Assembly: GCA_020341815.1 (NCBI GenBank)
Contig: CP070837.1
Coordinates: forward strand, 1,474,607-1,538,606
Direction of reading: 5' to 3'
Length of the DNA stretch: 64,000 nt
Source of the DNA: Candidatus Omnitrophota bacterium
GTDB taxonomy: Bacteria; Omnitrophota; Gorgyraeia; JAFGHF01
Shown: positions 3,431-57,966 of the stretch, piece after piece
Layout: every line of letters starts with the position of its first letter
Position numbering within the stretch: position 1 is the stretch's first letter
Position numbers and translations under genes: made by a program
The notes under the pieces: generated by a model
The model's database searches: none
The model's input: the letters and a program-made list of their open reading frames with translations, nothing else
Told to the model about the DNA's origin: nothing

Positions 3431-3436
3431 AAATAT

Positions 3437-4894: not shown

Positions 4895-4909
4895 ACTAAG
4901 GAATTTAAT

Positions 4910-31712: not shown

Positions 31713-33428
31713 ATGAATATACTTCTCGTAAATTTGCCATCGTTATCCTTTTCGTTATTGGACGAATCGCTAAGAAATAAAGAGGTTCTGGAAAGTCCGG
31801 TAATATTGCAAATGCCATTAAGCTTGCTTTATCTTTCCTCTTATGCGCGCAGATATGCCAAGCGGGATTTTAACTTGAAACTGCTTGATATTAATAAAGA
31901 GGTTTTTGAGATATTCAAGGAAAGAAAGATGTCGCTTGAGCCCCGGACTAATGAAGGGATACGTGAACGATTTAATTCCATCGTTTCTCAGGCAGTATCG
32001 GACTTCCGGCCGTCTATTGTGGGCATTAATATATTATATGCAACATCCCAGAATACGGGTATTTTTGTCTCTGGAGTATTCCGAAAACTATGTCCCGAGG
32101 CATATATTATAGGCGGCGGGATCCAGGCCACCAATACCTATCGGGAGATATTAAATAAAGGAAGTTTCGATGCCATCGTCCGCGGCGAAGGCGAGATACC
32201 TTTTACCGAATTGATTGATAGCTATAGACCGGAAAAGAAAGAATACCCGATTAGGGGTATCGTAAACCGGATAGACCTTAAGGGAAACAGCAATGACACA
32301 AAAGCAGAGATGGTCGAGGAGTTAGATGAAATTCCTTTTCCAGCCTGGGATTTGCTGGAAGGTCTCGATGACTATATAACTCAGCCAGTTCGCATAAAAG
32401 CCTTATTAGATAATTCTATAAGAGCAATGCCCATTCTTACGACTCGGGGATGCCCGAAGAGATGTTCTTTCTGTGCCTCGCATACGGTGCACGGCCGCAA
32501 AATCAGATCGAGGTCTTTAGAAAATATCTATGAGGAAATTGAAACTATGATTGCAAAGTTTCACATCAATACATTATTTATCGAAGACGACCTTTTTACA
32601 TATGACAGGCAAAGAACCGTAGATTTTTGCCGGGAAGCCATAAAAAGAAATTGGAACTTAAGAATTGAGTTTCCCAATGGGGTTGCGATTTGGACTTTGG
32701 ATGAAGTTTCGATCGATAGCTTAATAAAAGCAGGGACAAAGGTTATTAATATAGCAGTAGAATCCGGCAGTCCCTATGTCCAAAAGCAGATTATTAGGAA
32801 AAATCTTAACCTGGACCATGTCCGCCGAGTGGCGGAGATTATTTCCCGCTATCCCGATATTGAAAGCAGGTCTTTATATGTTATTGGCTTTCCCGGTGAG
32901 CGACAGGAGCATATCGAGCAGACAATGAAGTTTGCCAGATCAATGCCTTGCGACTGGAGTGTTTTTCACATAGCAATGCCGGTGCCCGGCAGCGATCTTT
33001 TTGAGGAATATCTGTCGTTAGGCTACATCAGTCGAGACAGCAATTTCGATGATTTCTGCAAAACATACCTAAACAGGAATTTTGACACTAAGGAATTTTC
33101 TAAGGAAGAAATGGAGGAAATACAAAGCGACTTAAACATAAAAATAAATTTTCTATCAAACAGGAATATCCTAAGGGGGAATTACAAAAAGGCCCTTTCT
33201 CTCTTTCAAAAGATTATCGAGGATTATCCCTTTCATGTCATAGCAAGATATTGCCTATGGAACTGTTTGAGAGCCTTAAAGATGCATAAAGAGGCACAAG
33301 AAGAATTAAACTCCATTTTTTACTGGATTAAAAACGATGAAAAATCTCAAAGGCTTTACGATAAATACAAGTCACTTTTAGAAATACCGGAAGATCTCCT
33401 CAATGCTAAAGATGGATCTAATCTATGA
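31713..33428 (+). CDS. B12-binding (class B) radical SAM enzyme
   Basis: The N-terminal cobalamin-binding module includes VSGVFRKLCPEAYIIGGGIQAT. The radical SAM motif is TRGCPKRCSFCASH. Confidence 0.8.
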   Translation: MNILLVNLPSLSFSLLDESLRNKEVLESPVILQMPLSLLYLSSYARRYAKRDFNLKLLDINKEVFEIFKERKMSLEPRTNEGIRERFNSIVSQAVSDFRPSIVGINILYATSQNTGIFVSGVFRKLCPEAYIIGGGIQATNTYREILNKGSFDAIVRGEGEIPFTELIDSYRPEKKEYPIRGIVNRIDLKGNSNDTKAEMVEELDEIPFPAWDLLEGLDDYITQPVRIKALLDNSIRAMPILTTRGCPKRCSFCASHTVHGRKIRSRSLENIYEEIETMIAKFHINTLFIEDDLFTYDRQRTVDFCREAIKRNWNLRIEFPNGVAIWTLDEVSIDSLIKAGTKVINIAVESGSPYVQKQIIRKNLNLDHVRRVAEIISRYPDIESRSLYVIGFPGERQEHIEQTMKFARSMPCDWSVFHIAMPVPGSDLFEEYLSLGYISRDSNFDDFCKTYLNRNFDTKEFSKEEMEEIQSDLNIKINFLSNRNILRGNYKKALSLFQKIIEDYPFHVIARYCLWNCLRALKMHKEAQEELNSIFYWIKNDEKSQRLYDKYKSLLEIPEDLLNAKDGSNL

Positions 33429-35278
33429 ACATCGCCATTATTGAATATAAAGAGAATATTGTAGAGGCCCTCAAATATTTTCAACCGGAGAATACCCTTT
33501 TTCTGTCTGTAAGCGGCGAGGCGAGTTACTGTTTATCAAAACGAAATATCGATTTTATTACCGATGAGGAAAGGTTGAACCCGGAAGAATTTAAGGCCAT
33601 TGGCGATGAAAACTGCAAAATCTTGGAAAATTGGATTCAACGGCTTGAAGAAAGGTTACAATCAAAAAATTCATTATTTAAAAAGAAGCATTTTTTCCCT
33701 TTTAAGTGGCACTTTTATCGGCTGAAGATATTGCTGGATGCGGTAAGAATAAGAAAAATATTGATAGAGAGGCTGATCGAAAAAGAAAAGCCGTTATCGA
33801 TTGGCGCGCCTCCGGGTGCCGTGCCCCAGAGGATACACGACCACAATCTCTTTTTTCATAAATACGACTCTCTTTATGGAATATTGACGCAAAAGATTGC
33901 TGCTGAAAAAGGAATAGAAATCAAGGTATGGGCAAAGGTTGAGCCCGCCACTAAAAAGCCTCCTGTCGTTGAGGGAATAAAAGCCTCTTTAAGAACATTA
34001 CGGAAGGCCTTAAGAGTAGTATTGGAATCTAACGATTTACTTAAGCATAAGAGAATAAGGGGTAATATCTTGCTCGGTAATCTCTGCTACGATATTGCGC
34101 CACTAAGACAAAAACTCCTGGATAAGTTCAATTTCTATTATTATAAAGACCCTTTATGTATCAGGTCTTTGAGTTCTCTTCTAAAATTGAAACCAAAGAC
34201 GTCGGGTTGTGAGTTTCCCGAGATTGATATTAAAGGTATCTTTAAAGGCCTCCCGGCGACAGGGGATTCGATTGTGGATGAGATTTTAGGCGATAGAATA
34301 GAGAGTTATGCAGAAAGTTTTATTCCTGTTTTATGGAAAGGATTGAATTATTTAGAATCCTTAGATGACCGAAAAGATTTTAAGGCATATATTCATCATG
34401 TTGGAGCATCCGATGCATTTTACGGCCTTCCGGTATATTATTTTGAACGAAAAAAGAAGCCCGTTGTTATTGTTCAGCACGGGACATATGGATTTGTTTT
34501 AAATCAAAATAATAATTTTTGCGAATTCGGCCATAACGGATATTTCCTTGCCTGGGGCGAGGGCGTAAAGGAAGTATATGATGAGCGTAAAAAGGGTAGT
34601 TGTAAAATTATTTCTACGGGTTCGCCTTTGATTGAAGAGATTAAGAAAAAGAGTAAACCGCGAAGGACCATATCTAAAATCTGCTATATCCCCGGCACCT
34701 ACAGAGGTTACACTGCTTATTATCCAAATGGCCAGCCTTGCCTGGACTCAAAGATATTTATTGTGGAAACCAATTTCCTATCGGCTTTGAGGCCTTACGT
34801 AGGAAGATATGACATAATCTATAAAGTAGCCCCTTGGGCCGTCAAAGAATCTGGCGTCTTTGGGAGAAACCCGATGCTTATGTGGATGAGAGAAAATCTG
34901 CCCACGGTAAGAATAGAATCGCGTCCTCTTACATCTGTAATTCACGAATTTGACTTTTTCATTATTGATTTTCCCTCAACCACGCTTATTCAGGCCCTGG
35001 CATCAGGCGCAGAGGTCTTGGTCTATGCTGGAAATCGATGCTATACTTTAGAGGATAATACTCTTGAAATGCTGAGAAAAAGAGCCGTAGTAGCTTGTAA
35101 CGAAGATGACTTCAAAGATAAGATAAAATTGATTTTGGATAAAGGTATAGTGACCTCGAATGTGAAAGATGCTTCTTTTTTGGAAAAATACGGCATACAC
35201 CTTAATAATGGCGAATCCTTAAAGCGCATGGCAGATGAAGTTAATGCTTCCGTGTCGAATCTGAGGATGAACGCATAG
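33425..35278 (+). CDS. Large uncharacterised protein (617 aa), possible GT-B-fold glycosyl/nonulosonate transferase or capsule-polysaccharide-biosynthesis-family protein
   Basis: It has no canonical motifs. The C-terminal region (VIVQHGTYGF...FFIIDFPSTTLIQALASGAEVLVYAG) resembles the second Rossmann domain of GT-B enzymes. It is one of three similar-sized unknowns in the locus. Confidence 0.3.
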   Translation: MNIAIIEYKENIVEALKYFQPENTLFLSVSGEASYCLSKRNIDFITDEERLNPEEFKAIGDENCKILENWIQRLEERLQSKNSLFKKKHFFPFKWHFYRLKILLDAVRIRKILIERLIEKEKPLSIGAPPGAVPQRIHDHNLFFHKYDSLYGILTQKIAAEKGIEIKVWAKVEPATKKPPVVEGIKASLRTLRKALRVVLESNDLLKHKRIRGNILLGNLCYDIAPLRQKLLDKFNFYYYKDPLCIRSLSSLLKLKPKTSGCEFPEIDIKGIFKGLPATGDSIVDEILGDRIESYAESFIPVLWKGLNYLESLDDRKDFKAYIHHVGASDAFYGLPVYYFERKKKPVVIVQHGTYGFVLNQNNNFCEFGHNGYFLAWGEGVKEVYDERKKGSCKIISTGSPLIEEIKKKSKPRRTISKICYIPGTYRGYTAYYPNGQPCLDSKIFIVETNFLSALRPYVGRYDIIYKVAPWAVKESGVFGRNPMLMWMRENLPTVRIESRPLTSVIHEFDFFIIDFPSTTLIQALASGAEVLVYAGNRCYTLEDNTLEMLRKRAVVACNEDDFKDKIKLILDKGIVTSNVKDASFLEKYGIHLNNGESLKRMADEVNASVSNLRMNA

Positions 35279-35285
35279 AAAGCTT

Positions 35286-37145
35286 ATGTTAGATACCGAG
35301 AAAGAATATATTGCAGTATTTGGAGAAGATATATTGGATGGCCTCTGCCTCATTTTATGGGGGTGGCTTAGGAATATAAAAATGATAGTTATTTCTTCGC
35401 CTATGCCTTCCCGCATAACGGATATTTTTAAACGCACGTCCTTCATTAGAAAATATATGAAGAAATCGATTAAAGAGCATAAGAGGGGTTTGGGTAATTA
35501 TAAGGGGCTATGGTATAAGGTAAATGAGGAAGTCATAGATTTGACACTAAGATTTTATGATTGGCGCCTAAAACATAAAAGTAATCTTATTAGTTATTAT
35601 AATAGAGTTCTAACTACCGATAAATTTGAGGCTTATATCAAAAGAAATCTTGCAAATCAAATATTTGCCTTATTGAAATATTTACATCTTGCGAGAATAT
35701 CAAACATTAAGCAAAACAAAATTTTAATAAATAGAAATCCTATTAATGAGTTCGTTGTTGGGTACTTCCAGGATAAATATAAAATTAAATATCAAATAAG
35801 GTGGATTTCATCCGGCTGGCGGGCGTTTGCTTTAGGGGCATATTACGGGTGGCTGTTTAAGCAATGTATCTACAGGGGAATCGTTTTTAATAAAGATAGA
35901 AAAGAATATAAGATATCCAAAGAGGCTGCCTGGGGTTTTTACCAGCCGACATTAAGAGACGATATATTAATAGATAATGATAAATTTAAAAAGAGCGATA
36001 TTTTGATATTAAACTTTAATACAGAACACTCTCCGCGCCTTGAGGCCTTTGAAGAAGCAAAGAAAAGAGGCTTTGCCACCGCTTCCGTTGAAAAGTTGAA
36101 AATCAATATAAACAAAAATATTTTTAGCATCCTGTTCTTCTATCTTTGGGTTCCCGTTAACGTCTATTTTCAATTGCTTTTAAGCAGACAATTATACCTT
36201 TTCTATTACATAATTATGTTTCATAAAGGAGCTTTTCCTGTTGAAATATTAATGAACTCTTATCACATTAAGTGCCACATCTCGGTTATTACTTATGACG
36301 ATATTGCAACAACGATTATTTTAAACAAATACAGGACGAAAAATGTAATTTTTCATTGGAGCGATATGACTTGTTATAAAGGCTATGGATATGCTTTTAT
36401 CGCGCATAATATCTATTTTACCTGGGGTAATATTCATTATGATTATCACGCCGATTATTATTTTGTGGATAAGAAAATCAATACTGGCTGTATATTTAAG
36501 AGAGAATATAATAAGACAGTAGAAAATAGAGAAAGGACAATTAAACGTTTACCCGGTTTTAAAGAAGAAAAGAAGACCGTTATATTCTTTGATTCATCTT
36601 TTAATAATGCCTTCCGTTTTACCGAAGAATTCTTTTTAGAATATTTAGAAATCATAAAAGAATTTTGTAAAAAGAATAAGGATGTTAATGTATTTTTGAA
36701 GCCAAAATCTGAGATGGATAAGTTAAGAATATCCCAGGATAACTACAGTCGATATAAAAAAATATGGAATGAACTTATAAGTTGTGAAAGTTTTATCTAT
36801 CTGAATCCGATAGAATGGAGCGTTGAACAGGCCCTCTCTATATCGGATATTTGCATAAATATGGGAATGAACAGCCCTTCTACGATAGCATTGATATTCG
36901 GTAAAGACGCCCTTTATTACGATAATACAGGCATTACGTCTCATCCCTTTGCTGAAAAGTATATGAATAAAATAGTATTTGAAGATAAAAACCGGCTCTT
37001 TGCGCAGATAAATAACATCTTAAATGGAAGCTTCAGTTGCAAAGATGTTATCAGCGAAGGAGAAATTAGAGAATACGATGCGTTCGAAGATGATGAGGCC
37101 ATGGAAAGGCTAAGGAGCGGTTTATCCGAATTATCAACCGATTAA
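35286..37145 (+). CDS. Large uncharacterised protein (619 aa), possible GT-B-fold transferase (paralogous role to 33425..35278?)
   Basis: It is extremely AT-rich. The C-terminus (SISDICINMGMNSPSTIALIFGKDALYY) is similar in pattern to its neighbour. One internal hydrophobic segment is present. Confidence 0.3.
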   Translation: MLDTEKEYIAVFGEDILDGLCLILWGWLRNIKMIVISSPMPSRITDIFKRTSFIRKYMKKSIKEHKRGLGNYKGLWYKVNEEVIDLTLRFYDWRLKHKSNLISYYNRVLTTDKFEAYIKRNLANQIFALLKYLHLARISNIKQNKILINRNPINEFVVGYFQDKYKIKYQIRWISSGWRAFALGAYYGWLFKQCIYRGIVFNKDRKEYKISKEAAWGFYQPTLRDDILIDNDKFKKSDILILNFNTEHSPRLEAFEEAKKRGFATASVEKLKININKNIFSILFFYLWVPVNVYFQLLLSRQLYLFYYIIMFHKGAFPVEILMNSYHIKCHISVITYDDIATTIILNKYRTKNVIFHWSDMTCYKGYGYAFIAHNIYFTWGNIHYDYHADYYFVDKKINTGCIFKREYNKTVENRERTIKRLPGFKEEKKTVIFFDSSFNNAFRFTEEFFLEYLEIIKEFCKKNKDVNVFLKPKSEMDKLRISQDNYSRYKKIWNELISCESFIYLNPIEWSVEQALSISDICINMGMNSPSTIALIFGKDALYYDNTGITSHPFAEKYMNKIVFEDKNRLFAQINNILNGSFSCKDVISEGEIREYDAFEDDEAMERLRSGLSELSTD

Positions 37146-37164
37146 AAATTGAGGTTTTGACCCC

Positions 37165-38163
37165 ATGGATTTAAAAGGAAAGAAAATACTCATCACAGGT
37201 TCGGAGGGATTTATAGGAAGCCATCTTGTTGAGAGGCTCTTGCAGGAGGATTGCGAAATCAGAGCTTTTGTTTATTACAATTTCTCCAATTCCTGGGGCT
37301 GGCTCGATAGTTTGCATAGGGATGAATTAAACAAAATAGAAATTTTTACAGGAGATATAAGAGACGTCAATAGGGTCAAGGCAGCGGTAAAGGCAACAGA
37401 TGCCGTATTTCATTTGGCAGCATTAATAGGCATTCCCTACAGTTACGATTCTCCGGATCATTATGTAGAGACGAATATAAAAGGCACGCTTAATATTTTA
37501 CAGGCATCAATGGATTCAAGGGTGGAGAAGATTTTGGTTACTTCTACATCCGAAGTTTATGGAACCGCTAAATATGTTCCTATAGATGAAAAACATCCGA
37601 AGCAAGGACAATCGCCTTATTCGGCAACGAAGATAGGGGCAGATTTCATAGCAGAATCGTTTTACAGAAGTTTTGATTTGCCTGTGGTAATAGCAAGACC
37701 TTTTAACACTTACGGACCCCGTCAATCCGCCCGGGCAGTAATACCGGCGATAATAACTCAGCTTTTATCGGGGAAAAAAGAGATAAAGCTTGGAGCTTTG
37801 CATCCGAAGAGGGATTTGGTCTATGTAAAGGATGCGGTTGAGGCATTTATGCAGATAGCCAAATCAGACAAAATCATCGGAGAAGAGATAAATATTGCCT
37901 CGCAGACAGAGATATCCATCGGTGAGCTTGCTCAGAAGCTGATAAGCATGATTAACCCCGAAGCCAGAGTAGTAAAGGACCAGATGAGGCTAAGGCCCCG
38001 GCAGAGCGAAGTCGAAAGACTGCTGGGAAGCAACGAAAAAATAATGAGACTGACAAATTGGAAGCCAAAGTATAGCTTAGATGAAGGGTTGAAAGAAACT
38101 ATCGAATGGTTTAAAAATAAGGAAAATCTCAAATTATATAAGTCGAATATTTACAATGTGTAA
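37165..38163 (+). CDS. NAD-dependent nucleotide-sugar 4,6-dehydratase/epimerase (extended SDR; LegB/PglF-type role inferred)
   Basis: The Rossmann start is ILITGSEGFIGSHLVERLL and the catalytic motif is YSATKIGADF (YxxxK). It is the first gene of a canonical Leg-like operon. Confidence 0.8.
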   Translation: MDLKGKKILITGSEGFIGSHLVERLLQEDCEIRAFVYYNFSNSWGWLDSLHRDELNKIEIFTGDIRDVNRVKAAVKATDAVFHLAALIGIPYSYDSPDHYVETNIKGTLNILQASMDSRVEKILVTSTSEVYGTAKYVPIDEKHPKQGQSPYSATKIGADFIAESFYRSFDLPVVIARPFNTYGPRQSARAVIPAIITQLLSGKKEIKLGALHPKRDLVYVKDAVEAFMQIAKSDKIIGEEINIASQTEISIGELAQKLISMINPEARVVKDQMRLRPRQSEVERLLGSNEKIMRLTNWKPKYSLDEGLKETIEWFKNKENLKLYKSNIYNV

Positions 38164-39253
38164 GCAAATTTACTTAGACGCTCCAAATGTCGGAGAATTA
38201 GAAAAGAAATACCTAATTAAAGCAGTGGACAGTGATTATGTTTCGACTATAGGGCCTTATGTGCCGGAATTCGAAGATATATTTGCCTGCTATTTAGGTA
38301 TAAACAGGGCTGTATCGATTCAAAGTGGAACCGGAGCTATCCATATTGCCCTGCATGAACTTAAGGTAAGCAGGGGTGATGAAGTGATTGTTCCTTGTCT
38401 GACATTTGTCGCATCGGTAAATCCTGTTATATATGTAGGAGCAAAACCTGTTTTTGTGGATGTGGATGATAGAACATGGAATATCGATCCCAAAGAGATT
38501 GAAAAAAGCATAACTAAAAGAACTAAAGCGATAATACCCGTTCATTTTTATGGAAACCCCTGCAATATGGATGAGATAATGCGTATTGCAAAAAAATATA
38601 ATCTTTACGTTATAGAAGATGCCGCAGAGAGCTTAGGGGCCAGGTATAGAGACAGATACACCGGGACATTTGGAGATTTGGGGTGTTTCAGTTTTAACGG
38701 AAATAAAATCATTACTACAGGCGGGGGAGGAATGGTTGTAGGAAACAATGCAGACAGGTTAAAACATATAAAATTTCTTGTAAATCAGGGACAAGATAAG
38801 ACAAAAGGATATTATTATCCGGAGATCGGATTTAACTATAGAATGACAAACATAGAAGCAGCATTGGGTCTTGCTCAGATGGAGAAATTAGACAATTTTT
38901 TAACAAAGAAGAAGACATTTAATAAAATATACAGGGAAGAGCTCGGAGATATCGATATTATCCGATTTCAGGAAGAATATCAAAACGCAAAGAGTTCCTG
39001 GTGGTTAACATCCATTATTTTCGACAAAGATATAGACATTTCCGCATTACAAAAAAGATTAAAAGAAAAAGGCATTCCTGCAAGAAGGGTTTTTATGCCG
39101 GTTACAGAATCTGCGCCTTATAGGCAATATAAACAGGCAGACTTTGGAAATTCTTATCAAATTTATGAAAAAGGTTTATGTTTGCCAAGCTCCACATTAA
39201 ATTCTGAAGATAATATATATTATGTCTGTAGGATAATAAAAGAGTCAATTTAG
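38156..39253 (+). CDS. DegT/DnrJ-family PLP-dependent nucleotide-sugar aminotransferase (LegC/PglE/PseC-like)
   Basis: It has the typical N-terminus (IYLDAPNVGELEKKYLIKAVDSDYVSTIGPYVPEFE), then SGTGAIHIALH...FSFNGNKIITTGGGGMVV. It overlaps the upstream gene with an ATGTGTAA junction. Confidence 0.85.
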   Translation: MCKQIYLDAPNVGELEKKYLIKAVDSDYVSTIGPYVPEFEDIFACYLGINRAVSIQSGTGAIHIALHELKVSRGDEVIVPCLTFVASVNPVIYVGAKPVFVDVDDRTWNIDPKEIEKSITKRTKAIIPVHFYGNPCNMDEIMRIAKKYNLYVIEDAAESLGARYRDRYTGTFGDLGCFSFNGNKIITTGGGGMVVGNNADRLKHIKFLVNQGQDKTKGYYYPEIGFNYRMTNIEAALGLAQMEKLDNFLTKKKTFNKIYREELGDIDIIRFQEEYQNAKSSWWLTSIIFDKDIDISALQKRLKEKGIPARRVFMPVTESAPYRQYKQADFGNSYQIYEKGLCLPSSTLNSEDNIYYVCRIIKESI

Positions 39254-39265
39254 GATAAATTAGAA

Positions 39266-40908: not shown

Positions 40909-40939
40909 GATGGATTAGTGGGCTAAATAAGGAGATGTA

Positions 40940-42103: not shown

Positions 42104-42115
42104 TTAACAGAGAAA

Positions 42116-43201: not shown

Positions 43202-43219
43202 CTCTTTGAGAGCAATAAC

Positions 43220-44242: not shown

Positions 44243-44268
44243 AGGAATTTATTGGATACGCAAATTTT

Positions 44269-45510: not shown

Positions 45511-45523
45511 AAAAAGTTAAGGA

Positions 45524-47227: not shown

Positions 47228-47258
47228 TTTCATTATGTTAGAAAAGGTCAATTTCATT
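47211..47258 (+). repeat. 24-bp imperfect tandem duplication (2 copies, 22/24 identical) spanning the sulfotransferase stop and ABC-transporter start
   Basis: The two copies are atgttacaaaaggttaatttcatt and atgttagaaaaggtcaatttcatt. They produce the peptide MLQKVNFI-MLEKVNFI if translated from the first ATG. Confidence 0.8.
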
Positions 47259-49046: not shown

Positions 49047-49070
49047 ACTTATTGAAAGGATAATAAAAAT

Positions 49071-50822: not shown

Positions 50823-50830
50823 GGTAGAAT

Positions 50831-51583
50831 ATGATATTTGAAGATATTAAAGAAAAAAAGGTGCTTGTGACCGGTGCCGGTACGGGGATAGGCGCCTGCA
50901 TTGCCGAAGTTTTCGCTTCTTGCGGCGCTTTTGTCGGCATCCACTACCGAAACAGCAAAAAGGAAGCCACAGCGCTTAAAAACCATATATTAAAATGCGG
51001 CGGAAGAGCAGAATTATTCAAAGTAAACTTGCTGGATAGCTCTTCCCGTGAAAAACTTATACCAGCTTTTGTAAAGGCCTTTGGCGGCTTAGATATACTT
51101 ATCAATAATGCAGGCGGTATTTATGGATTTAAAGATTTCCTGAAATTAGATGAGAAATCCTGGGAGGATACCTTTACTCTCAATGCCAAATCTGCCTTTT
51201 TTTTGGCAAGAGATGCCTTTTTTTACATGAAGAGGCACGGCGGAGGTAAAATTATTAATATTAGTTCCGTCTCGGCAAAGTATGGTGGCTCATCTCAATC
51301 TATCCATTATGGCGCTGCTAAGGCGGCGCTTGAAGCAGTTACCAAAGGCTTAGCACGCGCAGGCGCAAAATACAATATTTTGGCTAATTCTATCAGGGGT
51401 GGATTTATAGATACTCCTTTTCATAAAAAAATAGCTCGTGAGAATATAACAGAGAGAATAAACCTTATACCGTTAAAACGAGCGGGAAAGCCGATAGATA
51501 TTGCAAAAACGGCCTTATTTTTAGGTTCAAGCGCCGGGGATTATGTTACAGGTGAGACTTTTACAGTTGCCGGAGGAGATTAA
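50831..51583 (+). CDS. Short-chain dehydrogenase/reductase (classical SDR, FabG-like)
   Basis: The cofactor-binding motif is VLVTGAGTGIGACIAE (TGxxxGxG), with NNAG, and the catalytic motif is YGAAKAALE (YxxxK). Confidence 0.85.
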   Translation: MIFEDIKEKKVLVTGAGTGIGACIAEVFASCGAFVGIHYRNSKKEATALKNHILKCGGRAELFKVNLLDSSSREKLIPAFVKAFGGLDILINNAGGIYGFKDFLKLDEKSWEDTFTLNAKSAFFLARDAFFYMKRHGGGKIINISSVSAKYGGSSQSIHYGAAKAALEAVTKGLARAGAKYNILANSIRGGFIDTPFHKKIARENITERINLIPLKRAGKPIDIAKTALFLGSSAGDYVTGETFTVAGGD

Positions 51584-51589
51584 AGAGGG

Positions 51590-52573
51590 ATGAAAGAGAC
51601 CGATATCAGGCGACGAAAACTATTCGATAATTATTTATCAACAATAAAGAAGGATATCCCGATTTATTTTAAAGAGAGGGGTCTTTTTCAGGCTGTTTCT
51701 TGCCCCGGATGTAATAGCAAAAGGCACCGCTCGGAATTTAAGAAGAACTCCTTTGTATATGCTTTATGCGACAGATGCGGGACCATTTTTGTTAATCCGA
51801 GGCCATGTTTTAAACAATTAAAGGCCTTTTATGTTGATTCAGCATCCAGTCGGTATTGGACACGGAAGTTTTTTCCGCCTGTTGCCGAGGCAAGAAGAAG
51901 GGAAATCTTTCGGCCGCGAGCCGAGTATATAGGTAAAGTTTTATCTAAAAAGAATAAATGGACAGTGGGGGATGTAGGGGCAGGTTTTGGGCTTTTTCTT
52001 GAAGAATTAGCAAAGCTTAAGCCCTCTATAAGGCCAGTCGTGATCGAGCCTTCTGTGGAGATGGCCGATATTTGCAGATCGAAGGGCCTGGAAGTTATCC
52101 CTCAGGCATTAGAGGACATTCGGGGCTGGGATAGGCGTTTTGATTTACTTACTGCTTTCGAGCTTTTTGAACACCTTTATGACCCGGGTCAATTTCTAAA
52201 GAAAATCGGGCAACTTCTGCGCCCGGGAGGGTATTTGTTTTTAACTACTCTAAACGGCAAAGGTTTCGATATTCAGATGTTCTGGGAAAAATCTAAAAGT
52301 ATATTTCCACCGCATCATTTGAATTTTTTTAATCCAGGCTCTGTTGCAACCTTGCTTCAGAAAAATGATTTTATCGTAGAAGAGATTAGCACCCCGGGGC
52401 AATTGGACTGGGATATAGTCGAAGGGATGATCTTGAAAGAAAAGATAAAAGTCGGCCGCTTTTGGCAATTGCTGGCAAAAAGTAAAAATGAACAGGCAAA
52501 AAAGGCTCTTCAGGATTGGATTAGAAAATACCAATTCAGTTCACATATGCAGGTTTTAGCTAAGAAGAAATAG
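51590..52573 (+). CDS. Class I SAM-dependent methyltransferase with N-terminal Cys4 zinc-ribbon
   Basis: The N-terminus has CPGCNSK...CDRCGTIF (a 4-Cys ribbon). The methyltransferase motif I is VGDVGAGFGLFLEEL, with a post-I acidic VIEPS, and FELFEHLYDP matches the Methyltransf_11/23 pattern. Confidence 0.65.
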   Translation: MKETDIRRRKLFDNYLSTIKKDIPIYFKERGLFQAVSCPGCNSKRHRSEFKKNSFVYALCDRCGTIFVNPRPCFKQLKAFYVDSASSRYWTRKFFPPVAEARRREIFRPRAEYIGKVLSKKNKWTVGDVGAGFGLFLEELAKLKPSIRPVVIEPSVEMADICRSKGLEVIPQALEDIRGWDRRFDLLTAFELFEHLYDPGQFLKKIGQLLRPGGYLFLTTLNGKGFDIQMFWEKSKSIFPPHHLNFFNPGSVATLLQKNDFIVEEISTPGQLDWDIVEGMILKEKIKVGRFWQLLAKSKNEQAKKALQDWIRKYQFSSHMQVLAKKK

Positions 52574-52585
52574 GCAGGGAATTAG

Positions 52586-53512
52586 ATGCAGTTTAAGAAA
52601 TTTGCTAAAGATCATTTGCCGGATAATGCTTACAAACTATTAAGGCATTATTGGCGCACCATTTGCAGCAATTTAGCGATTATATCGATTAAACTCGCTA
52701 TTGCCGAGCAAGGTCTTCTTAAACTTTATCGTCAATTAAGTAATATTGTGCCGGATATCACTCATCAATACAGCAGTTTTAAAATAGACAATAAATATCT
52801 GCAGTTGAAAGTAAGAGCGCAGCATAGTTTCCAGATTAATCTGGCAAACAAGGCTATCGAGATGACGGCTATCGAAAGAAACAATAAAGAGCTTAAGATA
52901 ATTGATATTGGCGATTCTTGCGGTACTCATGTTCAATACATAAAAGGTCTATGGCCAAACAAACAAATTCGTACGCTTAGCATTAACTTAGACAGCAATG
53001 CAGCAGAGCGAATAAAACAAAAAGGGTTAGAAGCTATATGCGGCAGGGCAGAAGATATAAAGACTTATTCTGCCAGCGGAGATATATTTTTATCTTTTGA
53101 GATGCTTGAGCATTTGATGAACCCGTTTCAATTTTTACATAATCTTTCCGAAGGTACAGATTGCAAGTTTTTAGTAATTACCGTTCCTTATCTGCGTCAT
53201 AGCCGGTTAGGGTTCCAGCGCATGCGAAATAATGATAAAATAGAATTAAATGCCGAAAATACGCATATATTGGAACTTTCTCCTGACGATTGGCGGTTGC
53301 TTTTTCAATTTTCCGGCTGGCGTGTTGAATATGATACGATCTATTTGCAATACCCCAGATGGAATCTCTTGCGCATGATGAAATTTTATTGGAGCAAGTT
53401 TGATTTTGAGGGCTTTTATGGAGCAATTTTGGTTAGAGATTTGACATGGAGCAACTTGTATAAAAATTGGGAACAAGTAATAACAGAAAAAGAATGCTTA
53501 AGATTGCAATAA
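52586..53512 (+). CDS. Probable class I SAM-dependent methyltransferase
   Basis: IIDIGDSCGTH is a degenerate motif I, and LSFEMLEHLMNPFQFLHNL matches the motif IV/EHL region shared with the neighbouring methyltransferase. The call is less certain. Confidence 0.45.
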   Translation: MQFKKFAKDHLPDNAYKLLRHYWRTICSNLAIISIKLAIAEQGLLKLYRQLSNIVPDITHQYSSFKIDNKYLQLKVRAQHSFQINLANKAIEMTAIERNNKELKIIDIGDSCGTHVQYIKGLWPNKQIRTLSINLDSNAAERIKQKGLEAICGRAEDIKTYSASGDIFLSFEMLEHLMNPFQFLHNLSEGTDCKFLVITVPYLRHSRLGFQRMRNNDKIELNAENTHILELSPDDWRLLFQFSGWRVEYDTIYLQYPRWNLLRMMKFYWSKFDFEGFYGAILVRDLTWSNLYKNWEQVITEKECLRLQ

Positions 53513-54405
53513 CTACCACATCATTCGGAGAGTTTGACGAAAAGCCTTTGAGCCTTTTGAGGGATTCCGGCTTTGAAGTTGTGTTAAATTCTTATGGCAG
53601 AAAGCTTGAAGAAAAAGAAGTTATTGAGCTGACAAAGGATGCTATCGGTCTTATCGCTGGAACCGAAGCTTTGGATTCGAAAACTTTAGCAGGGCTGCCG
53701 CAACTTAAAGTCATCTCGCGTTGCGGAGCGGGAATAGACAATGTGGATTTAGAAGCAGCCGAAGGGGCAGGAATAAAGGTCTATAATACTGCTGATGCGC
53801 CAACGGTGGCTGTTGCAGAATTAACAATCGGTCTGATATTGGGGCTACTGCGCAAAATACCAATTATGCACCGGGAAATCAGCAACGGTTTATGGAAAAA
53901 AAGGACAGGGAATCTTTTGTCCGGTAAACAGGTTGGCATTGTTGGTTTTGGCAGGATTGGCAGAAAAGTAGCAGGGTTGCTTAAGGAAATGAGAGCCAAT
54001 GTATTTTATACCGATCCATTCATAATAGAAAAAGGAGAATTCGCGAAGGTTAAATTTAAAGAGCTTTTAAAAAAGTCTGATATTATAAGTTTACATCTTT
54101 CCTATTCACAAGAAAACCGTAATTTGCTGGGAAGAGAGGAATTTTCTTTAATGAAGCAGGGAGCATTCTTAATAAACGCATCGCGAGGGGGCATTGTGGA
54201 TGAAGATGCGCTTTACCTGGCGCTTAAAGAAGGAAGGCTTGCCGGGGCTGCTCTGGATGTTTTTGAAGAAGAGCCTTATAAGGGCCGACTAAAGGAATTG
54301 GATAATGTAATCCTCACCCCGCATATCGGTTCCTACGCGAAAGAATCCCGGATAGAAATGGAGATGCGGGCCGTGCATAATTTGCTAGAAGGTTTAGGGT
54401 GTTAA
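53494..54405 (+). CDS. D-isomer-specific 2-hydroxyacid dehydrogenase (PGDH/glycerate dehydrogenase-like), NAD-binding
   Basis: The NAD motif is GKQVGIVGFGRIGRKVA (GxGxxGxxxA), and the catalytic region is ...ASRGGIVDEDAL...PHIGS (Arg/Glu/His triad context). I prefer the start at the second Met (MLKIAI). Confidence 0.85.
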   Translation: MLKIAITTTSFGEFDEKPLSLLRDSGFEVVLNSYGRKLEEKEVIELTKDAIGLIAGTEALDSKTLAGLPQLKVISRCGAGIDNVDLEAAEGAGIKVYNTADAPTVAVAELTIGLILGLLRKIPIMHREISNGLWKKRTGNLLSGKQVGIVGFGRIGRKVAGLLKEMRANVFYTDPFIIEKGEFAKVKFKELLKKSDIISLHLSYSQENRNLLGREEFSLMKQGAFLINASRGGIVDEDALYLALKEGRLAGAALDVFEEEPYKGRLKELDNVILTPHIGSYAKESRIEMEMRAVHNLLEGLGC

Positions 54406-54406
54406 G

Positions 54407-55069
54407 TTGATTAAGGCAATTATTTTCGATTTTGATGGTGTGATTGTGGAATCGGCGGATATTAAGACAGAGGCCTTTAGGGAACTTTTCGCTGCTTATC
54501 CGCAAAGAATCAAGGAAATCATAGATTATCATTTAATAAATGCCGGCGTTTCCCGTTATGTTAAGTTTCGATACATTTATGAACGAATCTTAGAGAAAGG
54601 CCTTCTTAAGAATAGAGAAATTGAGCTGGGAAATCGCTTTTCTCAAATAGTACTGGAGAAAATTCTTAACGCCCCTTTAGTAGCCGGGGCAAAGGAATTC
54701 TTCGATGCCAACAGAAGTAGATATCAATTCTTCGTTGCTTCGGGCACGCCGGAAGAAGAGCTGCGTGAGATTATTGAGGCAAGGGGCTTGCAGGGACATT
54801 TTAAAGAGATACACGGCAGCCCAAAGAAAAAAACAGCTATTATAAACGAGATAATAAATAAATACAGTTTTGCAAAGAATGAAGTTGTTTATGTCGGTGA
54901 TGCACAAAGCGACCGTATTTCAGCAGAAGAGGCAGGAATAGTCTTTATTGAACGTAAACCCGACTTAGATTTAAAGTCAGGAAGTTATCCATGGGCCATA
55001 AAAGACCTATCCGACTTCGGTGAAATTTTAAAAAAAATTGAAAAAATTAACTTTTGGAGGAATGATTAA
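54407..55069 (+). CDS. HAD-superfamily hydrolase (phosphatase/phosphomutase-like, subfamily IA)
   Basis: It has a TTG start. Motif I is IIFDFDGVIVES (DxDGV) and motif III/IV is ...KK...VVYVGDAQSD. Confidence 0.8.
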   Translation: MIKAIIFDFDGVIVESADIKTEAFRELFAAYPQRIKEIIDYHLINAGVSRYVKFRYIYERILEKGLLKNREIELGNRFSQIVLEKILNAPLVAGAKEFFDANRSRYQFFVASGTPEEELREIIEARGLQGHFKEIHGSPKKKTAIINEIINKYSFAKNEVVYVGDAQSDRISAEEAGIVFIERKPDLDLKSGSYPWAIKDLSDFGEILKKIEKINFWRND

Positions 55070-55070
55070 G

Positions 55071-55967
55071 ATGAAGATAATTGTTTTTGGTGGATCAGGA
55101 TTTATTGGTAGCCATGTGGCGGATATATTAACTGAAAGCGGACATGAAGTTAGAATTTTTGATTTGGAACCTTCGCCTTACTTTAAAGCGAATCAAGAAA
55201 TGATTACAGGAGATATTTTGGATGAACAGAAGGTAAACAAGGCTGTTGAGGATTGCGATTATATTTACCATTTTGCAGGTATAGCGGACCTTGACGATGC
55301 CAGGACCAAATCCTTAGAGACAGTAACTCAAAATATAAAAGGAACGGCAGTTTTACTTGGAGCAGCTCGTCGCATAAGAGCGAAAAGATTTGTTTTTGCC
55401 AGCACCGTTTATGTTTATAGCGACAGAGGAGGCTTCTACCGTTGCAGTAAACAGGCAGCAGAACTCTATGTGGAAGAATACCAGAGGCATTACGGCTTAG
55501 ATTACACTATATTACGCTACGGCAGTGTTTATGGACCGCGCGCCGACCATCGCAATAGTGTCTATAAATATTTAAAACAGGCCATGGAAGAAGGGAAGAT
55601 TGAAATTTGCGCTAACGGTGAAGAAATGAGAGAATACATTCATGTAAGAGATGCTGCGCGTTTGAGCGTAGAGGCGCTTTCAGAAAAACATAGGAATCAG
55701 CATATAATTATTACAGGGCACCACCCGATGAAATTTAGAGATTTTCTATATACAATAAAAGAAATCCTGGGTAATAAAGTTAAAATCGAATTTAAAGAAG
55801 TTATTCCAAACTCTCCGCATTATAACTTAACTCCTTATTCCTTTATTCCAAAAATCGGCTATAAGCTTACCGCAAATCATTACTTAGATATGGGGCAGGG
55901 ATTGCTGGAATGTATAGATGAGATCCATTCTTTCAATCAAATAAAAGAGGCTGTAAAAAATGCTTAA
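55071..55967 (+). CDS. NAD-dependent nucleotide-sugar epimerase/dehydratase (extended SDR)
   Basis: The Rossmann motif is MKIIVFGGSGFIGSHVADIL and the catalytic motif is YRCSKQAAE (YxxxK). A GGAGG sequence lies 10 nt upstream of the ATG at 55071, so I prefer this start over the ORF-track start at 55038. Confidence 0.8.
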   Translation: MKIIVFGGSGFIGSHVADILTESGHEVRIFDLEPSPYFKANQEMITGDILDEQKVNKAVEDCDYIYHFAGIADLDDARTKSLETVTQNIKGTAVLLGAARRIRAKRFVFASTVYVYSDRGGFYRCSKQAAELYVEEYQRHYGLDYTILRYGSVYGPRADHRNSVYKYLKQAMEEGKIEICANGEEMREYIHVRDAARLSVEALSEKHRNQHIIITGHHPMKFRDFLYTIKEILGNKVKIEFKEVIPNSPHYNLTPYSFIPKIGYKLTANHYLDMGQGLLECIDEIHSFNQIKEAVKNA

Positions 55968-57966
55968 CGCTGCACTTTATGTATTTGACCGCATGCCTAA
56001 CGTGAGAAGGCTTATCCGATATTCTGATGAGAAAAATATCGACAAAATATTTCTCTGCCCTGTGACGGCCAATCAAGATACGACCTCTTTAATCGTTAAA
56101 CATTTTTCTTCAATAAAAAATCGTAAAATTGAAGTCATTCCATATTTAGAACATTTTAATAGACAGGCCTTTTTGGAACGCGATAATTTTATTCATTTCA
56201 TTTCTGAGTTTGGCGAAAAGCCAAGGTTCGGCGAGATTAACTTTAAAAAATACTTTAAATATCCGTTCAGTTCATTTTCCGTATGGTGGTCTTCCCTGAT
56301 ATTTGAAAAAAACCCTCTAAAAAGCGATGTGTACCATAGTTTAGTTCAATTACTTACTATACTAAAACTAAAGAAAGAATATAAATGCAAACAGCTAATA
56401 CTCGATATTGGATCGAAAGATTTATCCTGCACAATAATGCAGGATAGCATAAATAGGCAATACCATTGTATCGATTTCAAAAAATATAGAGTGCATTCAC
56501 AAATTGTTACTTTTTCAGTAAATTTCTTAAAGGGAATAAAACATTATTTTTATTTCATATATAAGATTTTTATTGTGACTGTTCATGCCAGGGGCTTAGG
56601 CTTTAGAAAAGAGATTTTAAGAAACGCCAGGTATCTCGCTATCAGTTACTTCCCTTTAATTGACAGAGAGTCTTTAAAACAAGAGAAGTTTGTTAATAAA
56701 TATTATGGCGCGCTGCAAACAGCGCTGGAAAATAAGTATAAAGACAGATTTATCTGGCTGGCAGTGTCACCCGGCATCGATGGTTTTAGTTTTCGGGATA
56801 GCGTTAAGCTGGGAAGACAGATAAATACCTGGAAATACCCGATTTATTTCCTGGAAGAATGGGTTAGCCCGAAGGACCTGCTTGTGATTATGGCCCATTA
56901 CGTTTATTTCATGATTAAGTGCATTATAAAGGTACCCTATCTTTCAAAAAGCTTCGAGTATTCTAAAGAAAGTATAAATGTCTGGAACATTTTTAAACAA
57001 GATTGGTTTTCTTCATTCGCCGGCGGAGCTTTAATGAGCAACATCTTTTATTTTAAGGCTTTTAGGAATATTTCTAATAAACTTAAATCCGGGACAGTTG
57101 TTACATACCTTGCCGAAAGTCAGCCCTGGGAAAGAACGTTAAATTTTACCCTCCATGATCAGAATAGGAATCTGAAAACCGTCGGGATAGTACATACTAC
57201 GATTCCACTATTGCTGTTACAGTTTTTCGATTCTAAAGATGATTTGCAATGGGATGAGCGCTCGAAATTTACTATGCCCAAACCGGATTATTTAGCATGT
57301 AACGGCAGGATTCCATTAGAAGTTTTTCAGGAAACAGGCTGGAGTAAAAAAAGAGCTTTTTTATGGTTCGCTATACGCTATCAGCATCTCAAAAAACATC
57401 TGCAAAAGAGGATTCCCTGGCAGAGCCGACAGAATAAAATCTTAGTCGCATTAGCGTTTAGCACCAAAGAAGCAAAGGAGTTATTATATTATATTCATCA
57501 AGCCTTCAGCGGACAGACAGATTACCAAATAATCATAAAAGGGCACTACCATGGGCTTCCCGTGCAAACTCTGATTAAGCGCTTGAATTTAGATTTTAAT
57601 AAAAATACCTTTATTTTTTCAAATGAAGAGCTGGATAGGCTTTTGCCTTTGGTAAAGGCGATGATCGTAGCCAGCTCTTCGGTTGCTTTGGAAAGCATCA
57701 CTTTCGGATGCCCGGTTATTATTCCCAGATTATCCGGCGTAATCGATATGAATCCACTTTCAGAAATTAGCGATTTGCCACTTTACGCACAAAGCCCTGA
57801 AAGGTTACGCGGCTTAGTAGATGATATCCTAACGCGAAGAGAATCCCCGGTAAATTATGAAAAATGTAAGAATTTTGTCGAGAATTACTTCGAATTCCCT
57901 GATTCCGAACACGAATTGATAGAAAAGATAGAAAGCTGTTTTGCAGCTGCCGGAAAGATGCTATGA
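55960..57966 (+). CDS. Large uncharacterised protein (668 aa), GT-B-like C-terminus; candidate glycosyl/nonulosonate transferase or capsule-biosynthesis-family protein
   Basis: The C-terminus (ILVALAFSTKEAKELLYYI...LLPLVKAMIVASSSVALESITFGCPVIIP) resembles a GT-B second Rossmann domain. The N-terminal two-thirds have no known motif and are very AT-rich. Confidence 0.3.
   Translation: MLNAALYVFDRMPNVRRLIRYSDEKNIDKIFLCPVTANQDTTSLIVKHFSSIKNRKIEVIPYLEHFNRQAFLERDNFIHFISEFGEKPRFGEINFKKYFKYPFSSFSVWWSSLIFEKNPLKSDVYHSLVQLLTILKLKKEYKCKQLILDIGSKDLSCTIMQDSINRQYHCIDFKKYRVHSQIVTFSVNFLKGIKHYFYFIYKIFIVTVHARGLGFRKEILRNARYLAISYFPLIDRESLKQEKFVNKYYGALQTALENKYKDRFIWLAVSPGIDGFSFRDSVKLGRQINTWKYPIYFLEEWVSPKDLLVIMAHYVYFMIKCIIKVPYLSKSFEYSKESINVWNIFKQDWFSSFAGGALMSNIFYFKAFRNISNKLKSGTVVTYLAESQPWERTLNFTLHDQNRNLKTVGIVHTTIPLLLLQFFDSKDDLQWDERSKFTMPKPDYLACNGRIPLEVFQETGWSKKRAFLWFAIRYQHLKKHLQKRIPWQSRQNKILVALAFSTKEAKELLYYIHQAFSGQTDYQIIIKGHYHGLPVQTLIKRLNLDFNKNTFIFSNEELDRLLPLVKAMIVASSSVALESITFGCPVIIPRLSGVIDMNPLSEISDLPLYAQSPERLRGLVDDILTRRESPVNYEKCKNFVENYFEFPDSEHELIEKIESCFAAAGKML

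Follow-up and report, generated by a model that had tools for sequence, protein, structure and literature searches.

Transferases for sialic-acid-like sugars (pseudaminic acid, Pse; legionaminic acid, Leg; and their relatives) are scarce and hard to recognise, and two recent discoveries in the area, the glycosyltransferase (GT) groups GT118 and GT140, each founded a new CAZy family. In this work we analysed three open reading frames (ORFs), here called A, B and C, which lie within a window of 64,000 nucleotides (the whole stretch of DNA under study) taken from a contig (1.55 Mb) in the metagenome-assembled genome of a Candidatus Omnitrophota bacterium, where about 55 genes form a single-strand array around them. 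On balance, we lean towards reading the three proteins as paralogous GT-B transferases for ulosonic acids activated with cytidine monophosphate (CMP). Their coordinates and sizes are exactly those of a preliminary description of this DNA, which had proposed the ORFs starting at 33425, 35286 and 55960 as the missing CMP-nonulosonate transferases or polymerases of the locus:

ORF A, 33425-35278, + strand: 617 amino acids (aa), predicted GT-B fold, probable distant member of the LIC12162 family, candidate CMP-ulosonate transferase of the upstream NeuB1 module
ORF B, 35286-37145, + strand: 619 aa, probable member of the PFTS_polysacc family, candidate transferase for the Leg-type CMP-nonulosonate of the genes immediately downstream
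ORF C, 55960-57966, + strand: 668 aa, TIGR04326-like, predicted GT-B fold, candidate transferase that would use the CMP-activated product made by the cassette at 49071-55967

Among described enzymes, the closest by analogy may be the GT38, GT52 and GT80 sialyltransferases together with GT99 (WbbB), GT107 (KpsC/KpsS), GT118 (KpsS1) and GT140 (KrkA), which use CMP-ulosonates and adopt a GT-B fold, modified in some of them (PMC12887879). Compared with this set, A, B and C are much larger and elaborated in their N-terminal half, and neither a QxxxKD nor a D/E-D/E-G motif was recognised in them. In this regard, no match at E≤1 was obtained with the models of GT38, GT52 and GT80 (PF07388, PF07922 and PF11477), and neither searches of PDB sequences with the family profiles (E≤10) nor the top 50 Foldseek matches of A and C gave a member of GT99, GT107 (PF05159), GT118 or GT140. 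Of the families that the preliminary description had suggested for comparison, KpsC/KpsS, PF05159 and GT52/GT80 gave no significant match to A, B or C, and TagF a structural resemblance only. The transferases for CMP-Pse and for the CMP conjugate of Kdo (3-deoxy-D-manno-octulosonate) in GT99, GT107, GT118 and GT140 are themselves GT-B enzymes of a modified kind that hardly resemble one another in sequence (PMC12887879), which makes the failure of A, B and C to match them by sequence uninformative.

Three other described systems are relevant for the comparison. In Tannerella forsythia, knock-outs of Tanf_01245 and TFUB4_00887 lose the terminal Pse or Leg residue of the O-glycan, BFO_1060 being the strain ortholog of Tanf_01245 (PMC5420450). 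Like A, B and C, these proteins are GT-B/TagB-like, are encoded beside CMP-Pse or CMP-Leg genes and have an HP-type motif, if only partly kept in our three; the T. forsythia proteins comprise about 445 aa. The TagF/TarL enzymes (PF04464; PDB 3l7k and 8va1) share the GT-B fold predicted for A and C and are among their best solved structural matches, and by analogy they and our three proteins may also have in common a donor with a cytidine nucleotide, catalysis by His and a peripheral position at the membrane. However, TagF/TarL transfer alditol-phosphate from cytidine diphosphate (CDP)-alditols to give phosphodiesters, and the window has no CDP-alditol synthesis genes; their TM-scores with A and C are 0.37-0.43 on the target, and with respect to PF04464 itself, A, B and C have no Glyphos_transf match and no TagD/TarI-type gene occurs among the 54 ORFs of the window covered by our family scans. 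Finally, uridine diphosphate (UDP)-GlcNAc 2-epimerases, NeuC and PseG resemble the A and C models in fold, provide top Foldseek matches and act in the same nonulosonate pathways, but are proteins of only ~270-390 aa that co-exist with A-like and B proteins in L055 and L058 and, beside a B-type domain, in one gene fusion.

Family membership, homology and predicted fold

The database records of the three proteins (JSV30_07230 for A, JSV30_07235 for B and JSV30_07335 for C) are all annotated as 'hypothetical protein', and they had been taken for orphans without canonical motifs. This still stands for local Pfam searches, where A, B and C gave nothing significant (the best match was C to DUF6716, E=0.021), but not for other curated models, as each of them matches one. 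A matches TIGR04331 'LIC12162 family transferase' over residues 337-528 only (E=3e-9, 36 bits against a cut-off of 225), and precomputed Pfam assignments place PF27859 (LIC12162) on an identical protein (P0001) and on 25 of 28 homologs, some of them flagged as weak. B matches TIGR04417 'PFTS motif protein' (E=1.2e-4, 21 bits against 100), and PF27878 (PFTS_polysacc) is precomputed for P0030 and all 53 homologs; where a P-F-T-S-like motif is expected, B reads N-S-P-S-T (M-N-S-P-S-T in the family consensus) and A reads F-P-S-T. C, which has no precomputed Pfam assignment, matches TIGR04326 'surface carbohydrate biosynthesis protein' (E=1.2e-55, 189 bits, below the trusted cut-off of 250), with residues 73-616 (544 residues) aligned to positions 27-570 of the 602 in the model, and is by sequence a clear TIGR04326 homolog, either a divergent relative or a sister clade. 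As none of the three scores reaches the trusted cut-off of NCBIfam, A, B and C appear to be divergent members of these families.

The families TIGR04331/PF27859, TIGR04417/PF27878 and TIGR04326, homologous to A, B and C respectively, also resemble them in length (~600-670 aa) and in genomic habitat, which is that of O-antigen or surface-glycan loci with sialic-acid-like genes (PMC6679464). In Herbaspirillum seropedicae AU14040, neuABC is immediately followed by the genes of a 'surface carbohydrate biosynthesis protein' and of one 'LIC12162 family transferase' (orthologs Hsc_4297/4298), and the authors guessed that both transfer N-acetylneuraminic acid (PMC6679464). The suggestion of a possibly new family does not hold at this level: the three ORFs most probably belong to catalogued families, one of them already named as a transferase by NCBI, with the expected fold and in the expected genomic place, and the outcome is an annotation upgrade and not a surprise.

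Two further features of the ORFs deserve mention. The public record of B has 587 aa and starts 32 codons later than the 619-aa ORF, skipping positions 35286-35381. Those first 32 residues are kept among 48 homologs (consensus Y-I-x-I-F-G...G-W-x-R-N), which makes the longer version the better one, the deposited start being probably too short. On the other hand, the extreme AT-richness initially ascribed to all three genes is not a shared property: GC content is 0.393 in A, about the window mean of 0.391, and 0.368 in C, and only B (0.326) is near the low end of the locus.

The relationship among A, B and C became evident only by profile-profile comparison. With shallow family alignments, hhalign gave nothing significant (E=0.013, 0.02 and 0.19), and homology emerged after the profiles were enlarged with 144 representatives from an exhaustive hidden Markov model (HMM) search of the B family and with the ORFs of 55 related loci. 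The enlarged profiles aligned over most of their length, with probabilities of 97.7% for A-B (E=2e-12), 94.9% for A-C (E=5e-8) and 94.9% for B-C (E=4e-8), compared to E≥0.011 and probabilities of at most 3.9% in 21 controls, which used profiles in reverse as well as four unrelated families of those loci. Judged from these alignments, A, B and C are remote homologs, divergent paralogs of one GT-B superfamily, and the C-terminal likeness first noticed among them reflects real homology. This sequence-based unification of three families into one superfamily is new here; a statement of their relation to each other and to GT-B was not found in the literature searched.

Four conserved motifs fall in register in the profile-profile alignments:

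His after a beta-strand: Q-H352-G in A; F-H357-W-S-D360 in B; V-H412-T in C
W/C-G motif: W-G in A; W-G in B; C-x-G in C
Lys motif at a strand end: Y-K467-v-a-P in A; L-K472-P-K in B; I-K527-G-H529-(P) in C
Helix start: D-x-P517-S-T in A; S-P531-S-T in B; G-S573-S574 in C

Within the A family the conserved positions are Q351-H352-G353, W377-G378, G399-S400, K467..P470 and D515-x-P517-S-T519. The C family keeps E116, E386, W390-E391, H412, R473, K527, H529 and P599 invariant and T413, S573-S574 and P589 nearly so. The pattern 'SS.ALES...G.PVI.P', which had drawn attention to these proteins, is literally present in C (SSSVALESITFGCPVIIP, residues 572-589), and its degenerate equivalents in A (DFPSTTLIQALASGAEVLVY) and B (NSPSTIALIFGKDALYY) align with it in the profile-profile alignments. 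By the DSSP strings of the A and C models, the conserved motifs occupy strand C-termini and helix N-termini of the C-terminal Rossmann domain, positions at which GT-B enzymes bind the nucleotide.

A GT-B fold had been predicted for all three, and the models of A and C bear this out. AlphaFold2 models built from the family alignments reached a predicted local distance difference test (pLDDT) of 89.7 and a predicted TM-score (pTM) of 0.88 for A, and 91.7 and 0.92 for C; according to these confident models, A and C have the two Rossmann-like domains and the putative C-terminal nucleotide site of a GT-B fold, which extends to B through its homology to both. Foldseek searches against the PDB yielded 59 matches at E≤1e-3 for A, headed by the UDP-GlcNAc 2-epimerase 3beo (9e-8) and TarL (8e-7) and including WecB, GT4 enzymes and Bcs3, and 119 for C, headed by TagF 3l7k (1.5e-7) and including UDP-sugar 2-epimerases, BshA, TarM and the capsule polymerase Cps3D. 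Among the 50 best matches listed for each model, all were GT-B proteins apart from a few odd ones. Since TM-scores were about 0.5-0.6 with 8-13% identity, the resemblance is at the level of the fold only. The two outcomes that had been named as fatal to the proposal, a non-GT fold or clear homology to a characterised non-transferase family, did not occur, although GT-B hydrolases and epimerases remain among the top structural matches.

In the same line, the weak Pfam matches among 72 diverse superfamily members were to GT-B transferase families only: DUF6716 'putative glycosyltransferase' (ten), Glyphos_transf (one, 1.6e-9), Capsule_synth (two), polyST (one, E=0.032), Glyco_trans_1_4 (two) and Glycos_transf_1. 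Neither Epimerase_2, even at E≤1, nor Glyco_tran_28_C was matched by A, B, C or 69 relatives. A superfamily profile run against PDB sequences gave sub-threshold matches only, three of the eight being KpsC (E=0.2-0.7) at the region of the strand-K-x-HP motif.

Gene fusions, neighbourhoods and donor modules

Five cluster representatives of the B family (P0156, P0167, P0169, P0173 and P0187) carry a C-terminal CTP_transf_3 domain (E 1e-24 to 1e-35), and in P0156 the B-type domain and CTP_transf_3 are joined to PseG (163 bits, above the cut-off of 153.55). These fusions, described here for the first time, are a Rosetta-stone link between the B family and the activation of Pse/Leg-type sugars. No fusion was found for the A and C families among the loci fetched.

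Gene order points in the same direction. NeuB is present in all six other B loci, and in every one of them an A-family or A-like protein of 580-650 aa is encoded directly or closely upstream of B. In five (L004, L054, L055, L056 and L058) B lies directly upstream of a LegB-like gene, and the usual order after B is LegB-DegT-...-NeuB-NeuC, as in the window. L055 and L058 carry PseG and/or NeuC alongside the A-like protein and B, so neither of the latter is needed there as a pathway hydrolase. For the A family, whose metagenome scan gave six loci, NeuB occurs within 10 kb in seven of eight loci, and L053 reproduces the order of the window: PIG-L, CTP_transf_3, WbqC, B12-radical-SAM (S-adenosylmethionine), MbnB-like, radical-SAM/SPASM, NeuB, (DegT) and A.

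The genes around A and B in the window are as follows:

Leg-type nonulosonate module, 37165-43201, + strand: LegB, LegC, NeuD-type acetyltransferase, NeuB2, NeuC (40940) and PtmE-like nucleotidyltransferase, immediately downstream of B
NeuB1, 30668-31711, + strand: divergent NeuB/PseI-like protein (NeuB 310 bits and PseI 296 bits, both below cut-off)
B12-radical-SAM/TPR protein, 31713-33428, + strand: radical-SAM, B12 and TPR domains; together with NeuB1, the 3' end of the upstream module, of which A is the last gene
Cytidylyltransferase 1, 17510-18154, + strand: PseF-like, Pfam CTP_transf_3 (5.9e-24), PseF 122 bits, below the cut-off of 206
NeuB3, 43220-44242, + strand: highly divergent (NeuB 142 bits against a cut-off of 400)
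DUF4915/TIGR03032-like protein, 44269-45510, + strand: DUF4915 match
Cytidylyltransferase 2, 45524-46327, + strand: CTP_transf_3 match and weak match to the N-terminal part of TIGR04321

Packing is tight, with an overlap of 4 bp between A and the radical-SAM gene upstream of it. The window was said to encode three CMP-nonulosonate pathways, and indeed there are three NeuB-like and three CTP_transf_3 genes; however, only the Leg-type module exceeds the curated equivalog cut-offs (LegB 485.6 bits against 475, LegC 420.7 against 420, NeuD 193.8 against 160.8, NeuB 515.7 against 399.65 and NeuC 503.4 against 235.9). Cytidylyltransferase 1 is presumed to be the activator for the NeuB1 module. The absence of a recognisable sialyltransferase gene is corroborated, with no match to GT29, GT38, GT42, GT52, GT80, Maf, Capsule_synth or Glyphos_transf models among the window ORFs.

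For C the genomic picture is of another kind. The gene overlaps the upstream short-chain dehydrogenase/reductase (SDR) gene by 8 bp and the downstream GT2 gene by 4 bp, and ends a cassette whose homologs flank C-family genes across phyla:

C cassette, 49071-55967, + strand: eight genes upstream of C
CTP_transf_3 cytidylyltransferase, 49071-49814, + strand: first gene of the cassette
Radical-SAM/SPASM protein, 49815-50822, + strand
FabG-like SDR, 50831-51583, + strand
Two methyltransferase-like genes, 51590-52573 and 52586-53512, + strand
PGDH-like 2-hydroxyacid dehydrogenase, 53467-54405, + strand
HAD phosphatase, 54407-55069, + strand
SDR, 55038-55967, + strand: directly upstream of C

A genome scan for the C family gave 41 loci in hosts as diverse as Omnitrophota, Planctomycetota, Nitrospirota, Clostridia, Dehalococcoidia, Thermodesulfobacteriota, Bdellovibrio, SAR116, Pelagibacteraceae, Prochlorococcus, Leptospira and a methanogen. 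In the 21 loci with at least 8 kb of upstream context, HMM searches found CTP_transf_3 nearby in all and NeuB in three, and by tblastn NeuB was found in one of the 41. The loci were inspected within ±10 kb and NeuB could sit further away, the nearest one in the window being 11.7 kb from C; with this limit, the candidacy of C as a NeuB-linked nonulosonate transferase is unsupported by co-occurrence. As its cassette is NeuB-independent in most genomes, the product is probably a different CMP-ulosonic acid. The recurrent partners of C (47 loci) are SDR (33), 2-Hacid_dh (27), HAD (21) and radical-SAM/SPASM (15) genes, together with a cytidylyltransferase 59-74% identical to that at 49071 (20 of 47). 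Thirteen C loci (L010 at 3271-4868, L011, L012, L014, L033-L035, L039, L043, L047, L048, L052 and L059) have a HpaI/GarL-like class II (HpcH-type) pyruvate aldolase beside a cytidylyltransferase that passes the curated KdsB cut-offs, and this pair adjoins PGDH-like dehydrogenase, HAD, SDR and TIGR04326-family genes. Such an arrangement suggests a route to a CMP-activated 3-deoxy-2-ulosonic acid independent of NeuB and KdsA; the cassette of the window is the radical-SAM/SPASM variant, without the aldolase and KdsB-type pair. The occurrence of a NeuB-independent cassette tied to the TIGR04326 branch is also new here.

A particular case is seen in L052 (18711-19787) and also in L047, where an AroB-related putative cyclizing sugar-phosphate phospholyase (TIGR04425, 437 bits, above the cut-off of 400) is encoded immediately upstream of the C-family gene, with a GmhA-like SIS isomerase nearby. 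Both genes hint at a seven-carbon sugar phosphate feeding the L052-type cassette.

Putting the modules and the conserved residues together, A, B and C would be cytoplasmic, probably membrane-peripheral and metal-independent glycosyltransferases, whose donors would be 2-keto-3-deoxy sugar acids that the modules beside them synthesise and activate with CMP. In the C-terminal Rossmann domain, CMP may be bound by the K-x-(H/K)-P motif at a strand end and by the S/T-S/T pair where a helix starts, with the acceptor glycan placed against the enlarged N-terminal half. The conserved His after the first strand of the C-terminal domain (H352 in A, H357 in B and H412 in C) might then activate the acceptor hydroxyl, possibly assisted by nearby acidic residues (D360 in B; E386/E391 in C). 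By synteny, we would assign A to the NeuB1/PseF-like module upstream of it, B to the Leg-type module whose first gene it is and C to the product of the cassette at 49071-55967. The donor class, the pairing of donors with enzymes, the residues of catalysis and the stereochemistry of transfer are what we infer for this scheme; what the data show are the ORFs, the folds of A and C, the homology of the families, the fusions and the conservation of gene neighbourhoods.

Donor class and rival explanations

The three cytidylyltransferases of the window (17510, 45524 and 49071) all belong to CTP_transf_3, which is the type for CMP-ulosonates, and according to a 2026 preprint CMP conjugates are the sole form in which ulosonic acids have been observed to date (bioRxiv 10.64898/2026.04.20.719630). 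Together with the fusions and the synteny with NeuB, this is the basis on which we favour CMP-ulosonate transfer, and the initial idea of nonulosonate transferases comes out strengthened for A and B; C, which is not specifically tied to nonulosonate synthesis, probably uses a different CMP-ulosonate. No evidence was found for a role as polymerases.

Several observations weigh against this preference. The three families are named ones without experimentally established function, and in full-text literature searches by family name and locus tag they were mentioned just once, in passing (PMC6679464). The neighbourhood samples of A and B are small (8 and 6 loci) and mostly from related phyla. Structural likeness is generic for GT-B and includes non-transferases such as UDP-GlcNAc 2-epimerases, enzymes of GT38, GT52, GT80, GT99, GT107, GT118 and GT140 are absent from the top 50 Foldseek matches of A and C, and the family profiles of A, B and C gave no match among PDB sequences at E≤10. 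Of the sialyltransferase motifs, D/E-D/E-G was not recognised in any of the three and HP is partly kept: the consensus of the C family is K-G-H-P and C itself has K-G-H-Y, A has K-V-A-P with no His at this position and B has K-P-K. Moreover, candidate transferases and CMP donors do not pair one to one in related loci (L052, for example, encodes a BFO_1060-like protein, A and C with only two cytidylyltransferases), so some of the candidates may attach one and the same sugar through different linkages, or act otherwise.

The BFO_1060-like proteins just mentioned are a group of ~390 aa found in A and B loci (L052 at 6637-7812, L003 at 3049-4200, L048 at 4252-5418, L059 at 6594-7751, L060 at 4507-5679 and L027 at 2586-3704). 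They match NF046086 'BFO_1060 family glycosyltransferase' weakly (E=4e-9, 36 bits against a cut-off of 200), as well as Epimerase_2 and polysialyltransferase models, also weakly. In profile comparisons they come out as remotely homologous to the families of B and C (97%, E~1.5e-11), the K-x-HP and SS...E...G-P motifs being in register, which makes them an additional candidate for nonulosonate transfer. Two points limit what this group can lend to our preference: its link to the T. forsythia enzymes is that 36-bit partial match, and its alignment with A is marginal (64%, E=6e-5, the worst control being 5e-4). A, B and C themselves did not match NF046086 at E≤1, their relationship to it being indirect, through the ~390-aa group. 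The window has no BFO_1060-like ORF. A hidden gene of this or of the sialyltransferase type was considered at 22357-23553 (398 aa) and rejected, as this ORF showed no similarity to the BFO_1060-like group or to A, B and C; it had no Pfam or NCBIfam match either.

Among the alternatives, the first is that A, B and C are ordinary GT-B glycosyltransferases for UDP-, guanosine diphosphate (GDP)- or deoxythymidine diphosphate (dTDP)-sugars, placed near nonulosonate genes just by sharing a glycan-assembly operon, which we consider unlikely, if worth keeping in mind. Their fold matches include the GT4, GT1 and GT28 enzymes BshA, TarM, WaaG, MurG and PimA, two of 72 relatives weakly match Glyco_trans_1_4, the window contains RmlD, SDR dehydratases/epimerases and nucleoside triphosphate (NTP)-transferases, and some loci have more candidate transferases than CMP donors. 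However, the enzyme recurrently fused to the B family is a CMP-type cytidylyltransferase and not one for UDP- or GDP-sugars, C is associated with CTP_transf_3 in 21 of 21 loci, five conventional GT2/GT4 genes in the window (4910, 9451, 57963, 58890 and 60739) already cover such donors, and the K-x-H-P/S-S architecture aligns with proteins of the TagF, KpsC and BFO_1060 types.

Somewhat more doubtful is that the three proteins, C especially, work as TagF/TarL-like phosphotransferases, moving an alditol-, glycerate- or sugar-phosphate from a CDP donor to form phosphodiesters. Such activity would agree with the ranking of TagF first among the PDB matches of C (1.5e-7) and of TarL second among those of A (8e-7), with the TagF-like Cps3D and Bcs3 also among the matches, with the one superfamily member that matches Glyphos_transf (1.6e-9) and with the PGDH-like 2-Hacid_dh/HAD pair of the C cassette, which could make a three-carbon acid or alcohol. 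The cytidylyltransferases tell otherwise: those that accompany A, B and C are all CTP_transf_3, one passes the KdsB cut-offs in 13 C loci, and neither a TagD-type (CTP_transf_like) nor a TarI/IspD-type cytidylyltransferase occurs among the 54 window ORFs, nor any gene for making CDP-alditols, besides the missing Glyphos_transf match of A, B and C. Finally, it is improbable that they are non-transferase GT-B enzymes, that is, nucleotide-sugar hydrolases or 2-epimerases analogous to PseG, LegG or NeuC that feed the NeuB condensation, a role fitting A in particular since the NeuB1 module has no PseG or NeuC of its own, as in spite of the UDP-GlcNAc/UDP-ManNAc3NAcA 2-epimerases that rank high in the structural matches to each model (3beo heads those of A, 9e-8) and of a single NeuC (40940) for three NeuB-like genes in the window, A, B and C are ~250 residues larger than epimerases, no member matches Epimerase_2 even at E≤1, L055 and L058 have PseG and/or NeuC in addition to the A-like protein and B, P0156 already has PseG next to its B-type domain, and several paralogs per locus are typical of transferases and not of a single pathway hydrolase.

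Going back to CMP-ulosonate transfer as the preferred activity, a wider form of it can be advanced tentatively, as a possibility in which we have distinctly less confidence: LIC12162, PFTS_polysacc and TIGR04326 would together be an unrecognised and widespread superfamily of CMP-ulosonate glycosyltransferases, to be listed as new CAZy families and spanning Omnitrophota, Planctomycetota, Nitrospirota, Leptospira, SAR11, SAR116, Prochlorococcus and a methanogen. Its C-branch cassette, composed of a cytidylyltransferase, either a radical-SAM/SPASM protein or an HpcH-type aldolase with a KdsB-like enzyme, a PGDH-like dehydrogenase, HAD and SDR, would make an undescribed CMP-ulosonic acid.

In practical terms, three catalogued families become concrete candidate transferases with specific residues named, the fusion of a PFTS domain with a cytidylyltransferase and PseG argues for CMP-linked donors, and the broad cassette of the TIGR04326 branch may produce an unknown CMP-activated sugar acid. 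If true, this would be useful for annotating the surface-glycan loci of environmental bacteria and for nonulosonate glyco-engineering.

Further genes of the window

The rest of the array also contains a PglK/MsbA-like ABC exporter, as well as several SDR dehydratases/epimerases and the NTP-transferases mentioned above. A sulfotransferase gene is found at 46328-47227, and a related B locus (L054, 1924-3709) has APS (adenosine 5'-phosphosulfate) kinase and sulfotransferase genes, so the glycan may be sulfated. Downstream of the rejected ORF at 22357-23553, its neighbour at 23558-24295 is weakly C45 acyltransferase-like.

Nine radical-SAM genes are scattered amid the nonulosonate genes, six of them B12-binding, and probably C-methylating, and three of the SPASM type:

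Radical-SAM genes of the window: 3437-4894, 7062-8156, 14134-15855, 20528-22360, 27286-28815, 29569-30633, 31713-33428, 49815-50822 and 60739-62976

In Magnetospirillum, undescribed C10 'higher-carbon' CMP-ulosonic acids have been reported, whose enzymes were not named (2026 preprint); methylation of a CMP-nonulosonate at carbon by a B12-radical-SAM enzyme would be one conceivable way to reach them. Inside the sugar-acid module, at 26594-29579, a WbqC-like protein, a B12-radical-SAM protein and a member of the MbnB/TglH/ChrH family form a trio that is also present in L053. The MbnB/TglH/ChrH family is known from the modification of precursors of ribosomally synthesised and post-translationally modified peptides.

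The window matches to TIGR04321 'spiro-SPASM protein' are complementary in extent: cytidylyltransferase 2 (45524-46327) weakly matches positions 17-207, in the N-terminal part of the model, and the radical-SAM/SPASM proteins at 29569-30633 and 49815-50822 match its C-terminal part, positions 226-502. From these split matches, TIGR04321 appears to be a fusion of a cytidylyltransferase with a radical-SAM/SPASM protein, which links both activities functionally. Other fused proteins are encoded downstream of C, where a TuaH-like GT4 is joined to DUF218 (58890-60734, 614 aa) and a B12-binding radical-SAM domain is joined to a GT2 glycosyltransferase (60739-62976, 745 aa).

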